From the NCBI RefSeq assembly GCF_036507355.1, contig NZ_AP027877.1: a stretch of 64,000 nt of DNA; one strand, written 5' to 3'. The notes beneath the pieces were generated by a model, which had not been told where the DNA came from, did no database searches, and worked only from the letters and a program-made list of their open reading frames with translations. The position numbers and the translations under genes were made by a program. This document shows positions 4,524 through 17,926 of this stretch, piece after piece. How positions within the stretch are numbered: the stretch's first letter is position 1; each line of letters begins with the position of its first letter. The stretch comes from Escherichia coli. GTDB lineage: Bacteria; Pseudomonadota; Gammaproteobacteria; Enterobacterales; Enterobacteriaceae.

Positions 4524-5078
4524 ATGACCCTACGCAAGATTCTGGCACTCACCTGCCTGCTGTTGCCGATGATGGCTTCCGCACATCAGTTCGAAACCGG
4601 TCAGCGAGTGCCGCCGATTGGCATTACCGATCGGGGCGAGTTGGTGCTTGATAAAGATCAGTTTAGCTACAAAACCTGGAACAGCGCGCAGTTAGTGGGA
4701 AAAGTGCGAGTACTGCAACATATTGCTGGTCGCACCTCTGCAAAAGAGAAAAACGCGACGCTGATTGAAGCGATTAAATCAGCGAAGTTACCGCACGATC
4801 GTTACCAGACCACCACCATTGTTAACACCGACGACGCGATTCCGGGTTCCGGCATGTTTGTGCGCAGCAGTCTGGAGAGTAATAAAAAGCTTTATCCCTG
4901 GTCGCAGTTTATTGTCGATAGCAATGGCGTCGCGCGCGGTGCCTGGCAGCTGGATGAAGAAAGTTCTGCTGTAGTGGTGCTGGATAAGGATGGTCGCGTG
5001 CAATGGGCCAAAGACGGGGCGCTCACACCGGAAGAGGTGCAGCAAGTGATGGACCTGCTGCAAAAGTTGCTCAAATAA
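4524..5078 (+). CDS. ytfJ: Periplasmic protein YtfJ with signal peptide
   Basis: ORF track 184 aa; N-terminus MTLRKILALTCLLLPMMASA is signal-peptide-like; SD aaggaaa. Confidence 0.9.
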   Translation: MTLRKILALTCLLLPMMASAHQFETGQRVPPIGITDRGELVLDKDQFSYKTWNSAQLVGKVRVLQHIAGRTSAKEKNATLIEAIKSAKLPHDRYQTTTIVNTDDAIPGSGMFVRSSLESNKKLYPWSQFIVDSNGVARGAWQLDEESSAVVVLDKDGRVQWAKDGALTPEEVQQVMDLLQKLLK

Positions 5079-5110
5079 TGGCAATAACATAAATTCTGCA
5101 AAAATAATTT

Positions 5111-5139
5111 TCCCCTATCGTTATCTATGGGATAGGGGA
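5111..5139. terminator. Hairpin between convergent ytfJ and ytfI
   Basis: tcccctatc-gttatctatg-gatagggga inverted repeat. Confidence 0.5.
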
Positions 5140-5167
5140 ATTAAGTCTCTGAGTTCTTACGCCGAAC

Positions 5168-6079
5168 TCATACTGGTAACGCTAGTTGCTCTTTTTTAAA
5201 CGCCTCAATGGTCGATTTATATTTCTCGCAAATCTTTTCTTTGGTAATATCACTATCTGCGGCCAGATTCGCACTTACTATCGCATCCACTTGTTCGGCT
5301 AATTCGACTTGTTGGCAACCTGCATTAACCAGAAAATTATAAATAAGAGAGTAATCTTCATCCTCCAAAACAACAGAGGAACCATTACGAAAACGTTCAT
5401 CCCCTCCATAGATTTTAAGCGCAAAGCCCAAAGATTCTATGACTATGGCAAAATTATCATCAATTATTTTTTCGTAAATATACCATCCATCGCATTCTTT
5501 AATTCCACCTCCTGGTATTTGGAGTTCAAATTTACCCCGTTTTAATTTGCTTACTATATCCTCCAATAAGGCATAACCTAAAGACACGTCACCAATCGCC
5601 TGGTGAATATAACCTTTAATCCTTTTCGGTATGTCAGACTGTTTTTTCTGCAGAATATCCCAGGCATACAATCGTCTGTTTTGTTCTAACGGAAATTCAC
5701 GGTTTTTGAAATCCATGAATGAGTTATACTCATTTATTGTTATGGGGATTTCTTCGTATTCAAATCCACTGCCTCGCAATGTCATTGTATATTCGGCACC
5801 GTTATCTTTAAGGCTGAAACTGATAAGAAACTTATCCATGGCTTTAACAGTTTCATTTTTTGATGAAAGCACTTGATAACTACTTTTATCAATCTGAGTT
5901 GCGCAACGAAAGAACTCCCGCAAAGTTAACAGGCTATCATAATTTGAAATCCAATCTTTTTTATTAAATGCATGCTGGATATTGTTAAAAAAATTGTTTG
6001 AATGTGTTTTTGTATACGAAGACTTTACAAATAACTCCACCGCACCAATAAAATTATTGTGTCTGATCCTGGGTAACAT
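5168..6079 (-). CDS. ytfI: Uncharacterised protein YtfI (low-GC gene)
   Basis: ORF track 303 aa; AT-rich coding and upstream region; no motif recognised. Confidence 0.8.
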   Translation of the reverse strand: MLPRIRHNNFIGAVELFVKSSYTKTHSNNFFNNIQHAFNKKDWISNYDSLLTLREFFRCATQIDKSSYQVLSSKNETVKAMDKFLISFSLKDNGAEYTMTLRGSGFEYEEIPITINEYNSFMDFKNREFPLEQNRRLYAWDILQKKQSDIPKRIKGYIHQAIGDVSLGYALLEDIVSKLKRGKFELQIPGGGIKECDGWYIYEKIIDDNFAIVIESLGFALKIYGGDERFRNGSSVVLEDEDYSLIYNFLVNAGCQQVELAEQVDAIVSANLAADSDITKEKICEKYKSTIEAFKKEQLALPV

Positions 6080-6290
6080 ATGACAACCTTATTTTATTTG
6101 GTTACTTTATGTCGCCATTAAATATCTCATTATAAAAGTAAACTATCAAAAAACGCTCATTATTAAAATGTAACTTATTAGCAATTGAATTTTTGCACTT
6201 TAAATACAATCTCTTTTTATTTATAACTTTTTAGGTTGGGAGAAATCAGGATGGCAGAATCAGGAAATACACTGTTTCTGCCATCTGAAT

Positions 6291-7031
6291 TTAGTAAATA
6301 GACACTCTGAACCCCGGATTCAGGAACGACTCGCGCGGAGTGTAATCCAGCGGTTTACCCTGCCAGTCGTGAACATGCGCTCCGGCAGCTGCAGCCACAG
6401 CATGTCCAGCGGCGGTGTCCCAAATATTCGTTGGTCCGAAGCGCGGGTACAGCTGCGCCTGTCCTTCCGCCACCAGGCAGAATTTCAACGAAGAGCCGAT
6501 GGACGTGGTCTGATGTTCGCCAAGCTGTTGCAGATACTCTTTCAGCTCCGCATCTGCATGGGAACGGCTGATAACCACCAGCGGCGGGCGCGCATCGCGG
6601 ACCTGAATCTGCTTGCGCACACCGCACTCTTCTTTCCAGGCCTTGCTTTCTGCCGCGCTGTACATTACGTTCATTACCGGCGCATACACCACACCTAAAA
6701 TCGGTTTGCCATGGTCAATGAGCGCAATGTTAACGGTGAATTCGCCATTACGTTTAATAAACTCTTTCGTACCATCCAGCGGGTCTACCAGCCAGTAACG
6801 CTGCCAGTGCTGACGGACTTCCCAACCAGGAGGATCTTCTTCAGAAAGGACCGGAATATCCGGTGTCAGCGTACGTAAACCGTCCATGATAACGGTGTGT
6901 GCGGCAATATCCGCTGCCGTTACCGGAGAATTGTCCGCTTTGCTGACGACGTCCATCGGTTTCGTCCCGTCGTAGACCTGCATAATGGCATCGCCTGCAT
7001 TCCGTGCAAGCTGGCATACTTGATCTAACAT
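6291..7031 (-). CDS. cysQ: 3'(2'),5'-bisphosphate nucleotidase CysQ
   Basis: ORF track 246 aa; inositol-monophosphatase family, WLVDPLDGT motif. Confidence 0.95.
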
Positions 7032-7222
7032 TTCTCCACCTCGTCTCTGTGAGCGGTGTTAACTTATTGTTTTACTTATACCCTATCATTAATGAATGCG
7101 CCAACTGTGATAGTGTCATCATTTTCAAAGCGTAAAATTGTGGCATTCTTCACTGTTCTATAAGTAAGACGTTTATTCTCCCTTTTCTTTCGTATTCCCG
7201 ATGATAAAAGGATGTCCCTGAT

Positions 7223-7231
7223 GATTAAGTT
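7223..7231. repeat. IS1 target-site duplication, left copy (GATTAAGTT)
   Basis: 9-mer immediately left of IS1 left inverted repeat, identical to 8000-8008. Confidence 0.9.
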
Positions 7232-7286
7232 GGTGATGCTGCCAACTTACTGATTTAGTGTATGATGGTGTTTTTGAGGTGCTCCA

Positions 7287-7562
7287 GTGGCTTCTGTTTC
7301 TATCAGCTGTCCCTCCTGTTCAGCTACTGACGGGGTGGTGCGTAACGGCAAAAGCACCGCCGGACATCAGCGCTATCTCTGCTCTCACTGCCGTAAAACA
7401 TGGCAACTGCAGTTCACTTACACCGCTTCTCAACCCGGTACGCACCAGAAAATCATTGATATGGCCATGAATGGCGTTGGATGCCGGGCAACAGCCCGCA
7501 TTATGGGCATTGGCCTCAACACGATTTTACGTCACTTAAAAAACTCAGGCCGCAGTCGGTAA
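7287..7562 (+). CDS. insA: IS1 InsA
   Basis: ORF track 91 aa, [40 protein letters not shown]... Confidence 0.95.
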
Positions 7563-7984
7563 CCTCGCGCATACAGCCGGGCAGTGACGTCATCGTCTGC
7601 GCGGAAATGGACGAACAGTGGGGCTATGTCGGGGCTAAATCGCGCCAGCGCTGGCTGTTTTACGCGTATGACAGGCTCCGGAAGACGGTTGTTGCGCACG
7701 TATTCGGTGAACGCACGATGGCGACGCTGGGGCGTCTTATGAGCCTGCTGTCACCCTTTGACGTGGTGATATGGATGACGGATGGCTGGCCGCTGTATGA
7801 ATCCCGCCTGAAGGGAAAGCTGCACGTAATCAGCAAGCGATATACGCAGCGAATTGAGCGGCATAACCTGAATCTGAGGCAGCACCTGGCACGGCTGGGA
7901 CGGAAGTCGCTGTCGTTCTCAAAATCGGTGGAGCTGCATGACAAAGTCATCGGGCATTATCTGAACATAAAACACTATCAATAA
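7481..7984 (+). CDS. insB: IS1 InsB reading frame (expressed as InsAB' by -1 frameshift)
   Basis: ORF track 167 aa overlapping insA 3' end in the -1 frame. Confidence 0.9.
7538..7544 (+). other. IS1 programmed -1 ribosomal frameshift motif A AAA AAC
   Basis: ttaaaaaac lies in the insA frame (L-K-N) within the insA/insB overlap. Confidence 0.8.
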
Positions 7985-7999
7985 GTTGGAGTCATTACC

Positions 8000-8008
8000 G
8001 ATTAAGTT
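8000..8008. repeat. IS1 target-site duplication, right copy (GATTAAGTT)
   Basis: Identical 9-mer immediately right of IS1 right inverted repeat. Confidence 0.9.
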
Positions 8009-17131: not shown

Positions 17132-17926
17132 ATGACATTACCAACCACTATTTATTCATTTCCTGCATATTCACCCCGTTTTTCGTCCACCGACAAACCA
17201 GTAAAATTAAAAATTCATCAATACGCACGCGCTACATTACTTTCAAATCGTGGAAGAGATCATAATTGCGATGGCAGACGTACTGTTGAGATCCACAAAC
17301 TAGATCTCTCAGACTGGCAAGCATTCAATAAGCTAGCGACGAGGTGTAATGCTTACGATGGAATAACAATGAAGGGTGATAATTCTTTTGGATGGAACCA
17401 TGAAGCTACATTAGATAATATTCACGCCCAGAAATACAATAAAGCTTACGCGGGTGCGCGGTTAACCGCAGAACTGAAATATTTATTGCAAGATGTCGAA
17501 TCCTTCGAACCCAACAGTAGATACACAATACACGAGGTTGTTTTGGGACCTGGTTATGGTACTCCAGACTATACCGGCCAAACGATAGGATACGTTGTAA
17601 CCCTTCCTGCCCAAATGCCTAATTGCTGGTCATCTGAACTACCAACAATCGATCTTTATATCGACCAACTTCGCACTGTTACAGGCGTTTCTAATGCCCT
17701 CGGATTCATCATTGCTGCATTGCTAAACGCGTATTCTGATTTACCCCATGATTTGAAAATTGGTCTGCGTTCCTTATCAAGTTCAGCCGCAATCTACTCG
17801 GGTTTGGGTTTTGAGCGAGTGCCGCAGGAGCGAGACATCAGTTGCGCTCATATGTATCTAACGCCAGCAAACCATCCTGACTTATGGACACAAGAGAATG
17901 GTGAATGGATCTACTTGCGAAATTAA
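17132..17926 (+). CDS. yjfZ: Uncharacterised protein YjfZ
   Basis: ORF track 264 aa; preceded by about 350 bp of AT-rich DNA; weak RBS. Confidence 0.8.
   Translation: MTLPTTIYSFPAYSPRFSSTDKPVKLKIHQYARATLLSNRGRDHNCDGRRTVEIHKLDLSDWQAFNKLATRCNAYDGITMKGDNSFGWNHEATLDNIHAQKYNKAYAGARLTAELKYLLQDVESFEPNSRYTIHEVVLGPGYGTPDYTGQTIGYVVTLPAQMPNCWSSELPTIDLYIDQLRTVTGVSNALGFIIAALLNAYSDLPHDLKIGLRSLSSSAAIYSGLGFERVPQERDISCAHMYLTPANHPDLWTQENGEWIYLRN

Follow-up and report, generated by a model that had tools for sequence, protein, structure and literature searches.

The ytfI islet, an AT-rich, H-NS-bound single-gene insertion between ytfJ and cysQ in Escherichia coli

The gene ytfI lies between ytfJ and cysQ in a 64-kb stretch of E. 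coli DNA (contig NZ_AP027877.1, hereafter the window), in the order paeA/ytfL, ytfK, ytfJ, ytfI, cysQ, cpdB, which is common to K-12. Its coding sequence (positions 5168-6079, minus strand, 303 aa, ATG start) is the sole long gene-like ORF of an islet of approximately 1,219 bp (5075-6293), in which the other ORFs are short and overlapping. The islet is delimited by empty-site comparison as the segment that is missing from the ancestral ytfJ-cysQ junction, and the AT-richness and low complexity of the junction sequence limit the precision of its boundaries to about ±5 bp. On the left flank lies ytfJ (4524-5078, plus strand), whose final sense codon and stop codon (AAA TAA) are specified anew by sequence spanning the left junction. 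On the right flank, cysQ (6291-7031, minus strand) keeps its C-terminus, ...VSIY-stop, whether or not the site is occupied. The close neighbour cpdB is interrupted by IS1 in the present strain.

The region is a known, annotated and uncharacterised orphan gene of E. coli, which has already been published as an H-NS-bound insert. Across 1,211 bp the DNA is 98.6% identical to that of K-12, where ytfI has the same neighbours, and the protein is 98% identical to K-12 YtfI at 100% query coverage. An identical 303-aa sequence is present in NCBI as 'protein YtfI [Escherichia coli]'. The K-12 gene (b4215, 'protein YtfI') occupies the same cysQ-ytfI-ytfJ locus and has the same start codon, promoter region and hairpins as the window allele, but it encodes 312 aa, as the codon at 5168-5170 is TGA in the window and TTA in K-12. 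The nine-residue shortening falls in a poorly conserved C-terminal tail that differs among alleles. The 303-aa form is also found in other E. coli, and it is therefore a common natural variant and not an obviously disabling mutation. Two substitutions distinguish the promoter region from that of K-12, one of which gives TATAAT for the TATAGT of K-12. The first-pass annotation, made from the sequence of the window, had presented ytfI as an unexplored gene and not a recognisable system. The present analysis agrees, in that the region illustrates an H-NS-bound islet and is not a new system.

The composition of the region is extreme for its surroundings. Among sliding intervals of 1,123 bp across the 64 kb (mean GC 0.515, sd 0.039), the lowest is located on 5168-6290 with 34.0%, a minimum (0.340) about 4.4 sd under the mean, and just 0.06% of the intervals are as low. 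GC content is 35.8% in the ytfI ORF, 27.5% in the upstream region (6080-6290), 23.6% in the part of it at 6080-6240, and 34.3% in the islet as a whole, compared with 52.6% in ytfJ, 54.7% in cysQ and 51.6% in the entire window. For intervals of 211 bp, the minimum of the 64 kb is 0.261, starting at 6021. The GC3 of ytfI (0.327) is at the bottom of 52 long ORFs (mean 0.567, sd 0.075), and its codon-usage score against the pooled genes of the window is the second lowest, with yjfZ lowest. The GC profile, with the window minimum at this position, and the atypical codon usage thus agree with the earlier observation that the ORF and roughly 210 bp upstream of it are AT-richer than cysQ and ytfJ. Low GC3 and lineage restriction are also seen in other taxonomically restricted ORFans of this family, for example yjfZ nearby; however, yjfZ is placed in the DUF2686 family by the K-12 annotation, whereas YtfI has no family past its own orthologues and no characterised domain.

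Upstream of ytfI, the AT-rich tract at 6080-6240 (23.6% GC, defined by composition) carries the candidate expression signals of the gene. A Shine-Dalgarno-like AAGG (6087-6090, minus strand) is seen in the sequence 7 nt before the ATG, and the AGGT of this region is unchanged in six alleles. A sigma-70-like promoter candidate (6121-6149, minus strand) consists of a -35 element TTGATA, a 17-nt spacer and a TG-extended -10 element GATATT; it is a consensus match of a kind that is no more frequent here than in shuffled sequence. Transcription from it would be predicted to begin near 6113, past the GATATT at 6126-6121. Between alleles with a synonymous divergence of 0.68, neither the -35 hexamer nor the block around it has changed. 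Over the 211-bp upstream region, divergence between the window and the most distant allele considered here (L013) is 0.18 vs a dS of 0.68, which may partly reflect AT-biased mutation on already AT-rich DNA and not constraint. The invariant blocks are located around the -35 hexamer, the Shine-Dalgarno sequence and the hairpin next to cysQ.

The islet contains two stem-loops. The first (5110-5140, minus strand; -14.9 kcal/mol, z=-3.4) has a 10-bp perfect stem, TTCCCCTATC/GATAGGGGAA, followed by AAAAUUAUUUUU on the minus strand. It lies just 3' of ytfI and also 3' of ytfJ, its stem is largely kept in the P0008 and L013 alleles, and it is a probable ytfI terminator. The second (6246-6288, minus strand; -21.4 kcal/mol, z=-5.4) is a strong, islet-borne structure directly after the cysQ stop. 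A base change at the foot of the stem in L013 is compensated by its partner (ATATGGCAGAA/TTCTGCCATAT; -19.8 kcal/mol), and this stem-loop probably serves as the cysQ terminator and as an insulator from the ytfI promoter. A search of Rfam revealed no RNA family in the islet.

The distribution of the islet is patchy. The region is carried by 1,610 of 5,426 complete E. coli genomes (~30%), and ~70% are without it. The latter were sampled as 41 rows spread along the ranking; with the sole exception of one E. albertii-like record, the ytfJ-to-cysQ span in those sampled is 1,288 bp, vs 2,508 bp with ytfI, and the 3' ends of the two genes overlap by 11 bp. For an outgroup scan, YtfJ was located in one genome per species, which gave 80 Enterobacteriaceae loci from genera including Citrobacter, Salmonella, Klebsiella, Raoultella, Enterobacter, Kosakonia, Kluyvera and Trabulsiella. 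The two genes abut or overlap in nearly all 80 species loci, and the ytfJ C-terminus of the outgroups, ...LLHKLL[N/S]K-stop, is conserved and reads into the cysQ stop. Only one of the 80 loci, from a divergent Escherichia lineage, contains ytfI, so that the gene is far from universal in the family. Since the outgroups have abutting or overlapping ytfJ and cysQ, the empty state is the ancestral one, and ytfI was inserted into it. The junction reads TTAATT in the empty allele of E. coli, and TTGCTC or a one-base variant in the ytfI allele and other Escherichia lineages; these substitutions of its own argue against the empty allele being a recent excision product. De novo birth of the gene from local non-coding DNA was considered and rejected, as the outgroups are without any intergenic DNA at the junction. 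The DNA of the islet is imported.

No tRNA is found within 12 kb of the islet, and the islet itself has no terminal repeats, no clear target-site duplication and no integrase. It resembles classical genomic islands in its atypical composition, its clean occupied and empty sites and its reused insertion point, but those islands have an integrase, a tRNA and direct repeats, whereas the ytfI islet has none of these and no inverted terminal repeats, and it consists of one gene in just 1.2 kb.

Other cargo has landed at the same junction. In E. albertii, and in a record labelled 'E. coli' that clusters with this species, the ytfJ-cysQ junction holds an insert of 1,504 bp (33% GC) that encodes a pentapeptide-repeat protein. 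In Citrobacter youngae, a 2,120-bp insert encodes a radical-SAM/SPASM enzyme and a Cys/Gly/Ser-rich membrane protein, and in two Kluyvera species, a 904-bp insert contains a peptidase-S11-like gene. The E. albertii and C. youngae islets have no homology to the ytfI islet at the DNA or protein level, and the Kluyvera cargo is likewise unrelated to ytfI. No insertion machinery is visible at the junction inserts. The pentapeptide repeat region of the E. albertii protein weakly resembles those of the type III effectors PipB and PipB2. Insertion at this point may recur because, between packed convergent genes, only insertions exactly at the 3'-3' junction would spare both, and we suspect that the recurrence reflects selection.

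Divergent alleles provide an estimate of the age of the islet. More distant alleles, at 78% (P0008) and 70% (P0010/L013) protein identity, are found at this locus too; their junctions are identical, and they carry both hairpins. Between the P0008 host and the window or K-12, dS is 0.33-0.37 for ytfI and 0.20 for cysQ; for the P0010 host, the values are 0.68-0.69 and 0.66-0.70, respectively. Because the dS of ytfI roughly tracks that of cysQ and the same junctions occur in divergent lineages, the insertion is old. A tree built from cysQ places the E. coli group and the P0010/L013 lineage as sisters; empty sites are found in E. whittamii, two further Escherichia species and strain E69, and E. 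albertii has its different cargo. The simplest reading of these comparisons would be a single insertion before these Escherichia lineages split, followed by inheritance with the flanks. Acquisition would then predate the separation of E. coli and a lineage that differs from it by a cysQ dS of ~0.7, and inheritance would be largely vertical, as judged from three lineages and a single-gene (cysQ) tree. A horizontally acquired single-gene islet had been proposed at the outset, and both the empty ancestral site and the compositional outlier agree with this, but the acquisition is ancient.

The flanks also bear on the history of the polymorphism. When 8 ytfI-bearing and 6 empty E. coli genomes were compared, divergence peaked close to the junction, reaching 0.037 in the left-hand 200 bp or so and 0.034 in the right-hand 200 bp, vs 0.002-0.017 farther into ytfJ and cysQ, in a small sample in which within-class diversity is raised near the junction too. 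Fixed differences between the two classes are confined to the two positions closest to the junction. This pattern fits two old haplotypes shuffled by recombination.

YtfI is a soluble protein of 34.8 kDa with a pI of 5.6, and no 19-residue stretch is hydrophobic enough for a membrane helix. Searches of family collections were uninformative: Pfam gave no domain (LisH alone at E=0.73), NCBIfam no match, and PADLOC-DB v2 no significant match (a single Cas6b hit covering 40 residues, with E=0.0026 and 15.6 bits). The absence of a significant family in these three collections bears out the statement of the first-pass annotation that no catalytic or structural motif is recognisable. The uncharacterised phage family phrog_3250 matched residues 83-138 in six of seven related alleles at a borderline level (E=0.0013, 19.7 bits). 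An immunity protein of the SUKH/SMI1-KNR4 type was considered from a 'GGD...VV.ED' motif and rejected, as no SMI1_KNR4/SUKH match was obtained in Pfam. An hhalign test for internal duplication was negative.

Larger collections gave the same picture. No relative of YtfI was found by tblastn against 50,697 phage records, and none was confirmed in a pattern scan of IMG/VR; plasmid matches to ytfI came from large replicons of E. coli or from chromosomes deposited as plasmids. The plasmids and phages searched thus contained no source for the gene. A word-indexed search of a collection clustered to 5.8 billion sequences returned solely Escherichia/Shigella proteins with at least 70% identity, and a HMMER profile search of 1.84 billion representatives (~15 billion proteins) returned solely YtfI and its fragments, plus one further protein. 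The latter (P0034), a tandem-repeat protein of 1,441 aa that aligned in 13 separate stretches, was judged spurious. A sequence profile search of the PDB gave nothing but nitrogenase at E ~0.9. AlphaFold2 models had a pLDDT of 47 at full length and 64.5 for residues 140-303, a part predicted to comprise helices, a five-stranded meander sheet and helices, and fold searches with the YtfI models gave no match above noise. In these two protein collections, YtfI thus has no relatives outside Escherichia/Shigella, and its models gave no usable fold match.

Selection has acted on this sequence. Whole-gene dN/dS is 0.14-0.42 for ytfI vs 0.01-0.05 for cysQ, and the dN of ytfI is significantly lower than its dS (Fisher p 2.5e-6 to 3e-19). 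This purifying selection indicates that ytfI is a real gene, not junk. Omega is ~0.06-0.45 (mostly ≤0.3) over codons 1-150 and ~0.1-1.0 (mostly >0.25) over codons 150-300; the N-terminal half is thus the constrained part of YtfI, and the C-terminal half is fast-evolving. Decay has also been seen, as a frameshift, as an IS1 insertion and as an IS1-mediated deletion, and N-terminally truncated forms make up a cluster of 729 members.

H-NS has been mapped at this locus. In K-12, ChAP-seq shows an H-NS signal on ytfI that stretches over cpdB, cysQ, ytfJ and ytfK, and in strains SE11 and SE15, which are without ytfI, these four genes are unbound (PMC4720273). Higashi et al. 2016 used ytfI as an example (S10 Fig) of a strain-specific insertion that governs H-NS binding to its neighbours (PMC4720273). 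The association with H-NS that was proposed from composition is hence upheld, for K-12, by published occupancy that requires the ytfI segment. The AT-richness and elevated dN of the H-NS-bound, strain-specific, horizontally transferred segments in that study (PMC4720273) are also seen in ytfI. The label 'K-12-specific' (PMC4720273) greatly understates the age of the segment: it is present in ~30% of E. coli and is shared, with identical junctions, by Escherichia lineages at a cysQ dS of 0.2-0.7. The high-affinity H-NS motif TCGATAAATT is not enriched in the islet and has no site in the upstream tract. Binding at ytfI is presumably driven by AT content, the tract at 6080-6240 is, by its sequence, a probable nucleation region, and H-NS would be expected to repress ytfI transcription. 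Literature searches on b4215 and on cysQ/ytfJ/H-NS yielded nothing further on the locus than PMC4720273, and the papers searched gave no expression data for ytfI.

Taken together, the islet is best explained as an AT-rich, single-gene block of ~1.2 kb that was inserted once, early in the genus Escherichia, that is presumably silenced by H-NS and that most likely has an accessory role; we assign this reading a probability of roughly 0.8. The insertion hit exactly the point where the convergent core genes ytfJ and cysQ overlap by their 3' ends. The inserted block is self-contained: it re-creates a stop codon for ytfJ, supplies hairpins after cysQ and after ytfI, and has a conserved putative promoter and a Shine-Dalgarno sequence of its own within a tract of 24% GC. 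This tract may nucleate H-NS and keep the ytfI promoter mostly off, so that YtfI, a putative cytoplasmic, soluble protein of ~35 kDa with predicted helices and beta-strands, would be produced only on relief of H-NS repression. YtfI is dispensable, as ~70% of E. coli are without the gene and, among the loci and protein clusters analysed, several copies are frameshifted, IS-disrupted or truncated. Most likely it gives a conditional accessory benefit, and our best guess is a conditionally useful accessory protein that is possibly related to conflict.

Several other explanations have to be weighed against this one. If ytfI were an ancestral core gene of Enterobacteriaceae that was deleted from most E. 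coli, its low GC would be intrinsic and not foreign; this would fit the one position that the gene occupies in several divergent lineages of Escherichia, and a ytfI dS that matches the dS of the flanks. The outgroup junctions led us to reject this loss by deletion, and we give it hardly any weight: ytfJ and cysQ abut or overlap, with the conserved ytfJ C-terminus, in ~70 species of more than 15 genera, the empty sites of E. coli show this ancestral architecture and no deletion scar, and neither protein collection has a YtfI homologue outside Escherichia/Shigella. A non-functional, foreign relic that is silenced by H-NS and drifts toward loss, with a protein that does nothing, is considered unlikely. 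Its absence from ~70% of E. coli, the recurrence of disrupted copies (the frameshift, the IS1 insertion and deletion, and the truncated clusters with 729 members), a ytfI mutation in a lab strain, the lack of a domain, the poor AlphaFold model and a C-terminal omega that reaches ~1 would all suit such a relic. Against it stand an intact ORF and a start that is conserved across lineages at a dS of ~0.7, a dN significantly below dS with an omega of ~0.1-0.3 in the N-terminal 150 residues, and the conserved promoter/Shine-Dalgarno block; moreover, from stop frequencies, the chance of a 303-codon ORF in 34%-GC DNA would be roughly 1e-10.

Two functional proposals differ in what YtfI would do. One is a role in stress response, as a sigma-32 target or in tolerance to oxidants or boric acid. 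In published screens, ASKA over-expression of ytfI was among 23 clones that grew at 3x MIC NaOCl, and a test of sensitivity to boric acid assigned the Keio ytfI mutant to class 'LS'; sigma-32 ChIP-chip placed ytfI among the highest-scoring 'disputed' targets. The mentions of YtfI in the literature, among them binding to lactoferricin B on a chip, are single high-throughput hits without follow-up, and most E. coli are without the gene. The sigma-32 signal was not reproduced and has been argued to be a ChIP artefact, and inspection by eye of the upstream region showed no sigma-32-like CCCCAT -10 element, which leaves the stress-response proposal improbable. The other is a conflict gene, such as an anti-phage defence gene, an orphan immunity protein or a secreted effector, held as a long-lived presence/absence polymorphism under fluctuating selection. 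It would account for two haplotypes that both appear old (divergence of 0.034-0.037 within 200 bp of the junction vs 0.002-0.017), for the fast-evolving C-terminal half, and for a gene that is lineage-restricted, AT-rich and H-NS-bound, and the weak likeness of the E. albertii junction protein (33% GC) to PipB and PipB2 points in the same direction. However, there is no significant PADLOC model, no SUKH, immunity or toxin match in Pfam, no partner gene adjoining ytfI and no region of YtfI with a dN/dS clearly >1; the raised within-class diversity near the junction in a comparison of 8 and 6 genomes, and the uninformative fold searches, also weigh against it. We therefore hold a conflict gene to be a tentative idea with a small chance of being right. 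Rather doubtful, too, is the bolder suggestion that YtfI founds an Escherichia-restricted conflict family with a conserved N-terminal core and a fast C-terminal specificity domain, checked by H-NS and kept for long as a polymorphism.

For the ancient, H-NS-silenced accessory insertion that we favour, the status of ytfI as an annotated y-gene and as a published H-NS-bound, strain-variable insert was known before. The precise boundaries, the ancestral empty site, the ancient single insertion, the purifying selection on gene and promoter, and the reuse of the junction by other cargo are new here. By itself, ytfI matters little. It is a handy minimal model for the accommodation of a foreign gene between tightly packed core genes, and a defined candidate for conditional-function screens of orphan E. 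coli genes.

IS1 elements are found in the neighborhood of ytfI, the AT-rich orphan gene that lies between ytfJ and cysQ. In the window, a 768-bp IS1 copy (7232-7999) interrupts cpdB, the ATG of which is at 7221, at its fourth codon, and is flanked by a 9-bp target-site duplication, GATTAAGTT (7223-7231 and 8000-8008). The insertion cuts cpdB off from its own start codon and promoter. A fusion ORF with a TTG start runs outward from the IS1 end. An intact cpdB is present in K-12 and in most of the genomes inspected. The spacer between cysQ and cpdB contains a full-length match on the minus strand to ES239, an Rfam sRNA family (7098-7220; 157 bits, E=6e-32), and 12 bp separate its end from the IS1 insertion. 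IS1 copies were also seen in other strains, namely within cpdB in APEC-O117H42, inside or beside ytfI in H9Ecoli, and in place of ytfI and the 3' end of ytfJ in ETEC1738.

Alleles of ytfI vary as well. On the minus strand, the predicted promoter region of the window differs from that of K-12 at two positions, 6124 and 6119, which change TTCTATAGT (K-12) to TTTTATAAT (window). These changes create a perfect TATAAT that overlaps the spacer of the predicted promoter. In E. coli D9 (compared loci L006 and L103), ytfI carries an in-frame tandem duplication of seven residues, KKQSDIP, after residue 144, where the constrained N-terminal half of the protein meets the variable C-terminal half.

A second low-GC, orphan-like gene, yjfZ (17132-17926, plus strand), lies in a low-GC region at about 16.6-17.9 kb; its GC3 is 0.364 and its codon-usage score is the lowest among all 52 window ORFs. 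A comparison of yjfZ with NCBIfam gave no match. In K-12, the gene is annotated as DUF2686 and adjoins a TetR-family pseudogene.

Other genomes carry different cargo at the ytfJ-cysQ junction. A 1,504-bp islet with 33% GC is present in E. albertii (locus L017, 4556-6059) and in locus L005 (3497-5000). The E. albertii product is a 385-aa pentapeptide-repeat protein with an N-terminus rich in Asn, Ser, and Thr, and its repeat region weakly matches, in NCBIfam, the repeat regions of PipB and PipB2, which are type III effectors. The same islet occurs in SCPM-O-B-9504, which is labeled E. coli in RefSeq and has a cysQ that groups with E. albertii. Citrobacter youngae harbors a radical-SAM/SPASM enzyme and a neighboring membrane protein with a terminal tail rich in Gly, Ser, and Cys (L045, 4559-6678), and Kluyvera a peptidase-S11 (DD-carboxypeptidase-like) gene (L064 and L069, both 4556-5460). 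The cargo of C. youngae and Kluyvera is unrelated to ytfI.

A hairpin, CTGAACCCCGGATTCAG (6307-6323), is located within cysQ, at the 3' end of its coding sequence. At the matching position in other genera, the sequence differs and looks palindromic by eye, such as CCCGGAAGCCGGGG in Citrobacter. In the ancestral overlapping arrangement, this cysQ-internal hairpin may have served as the terminator of ytfJ.
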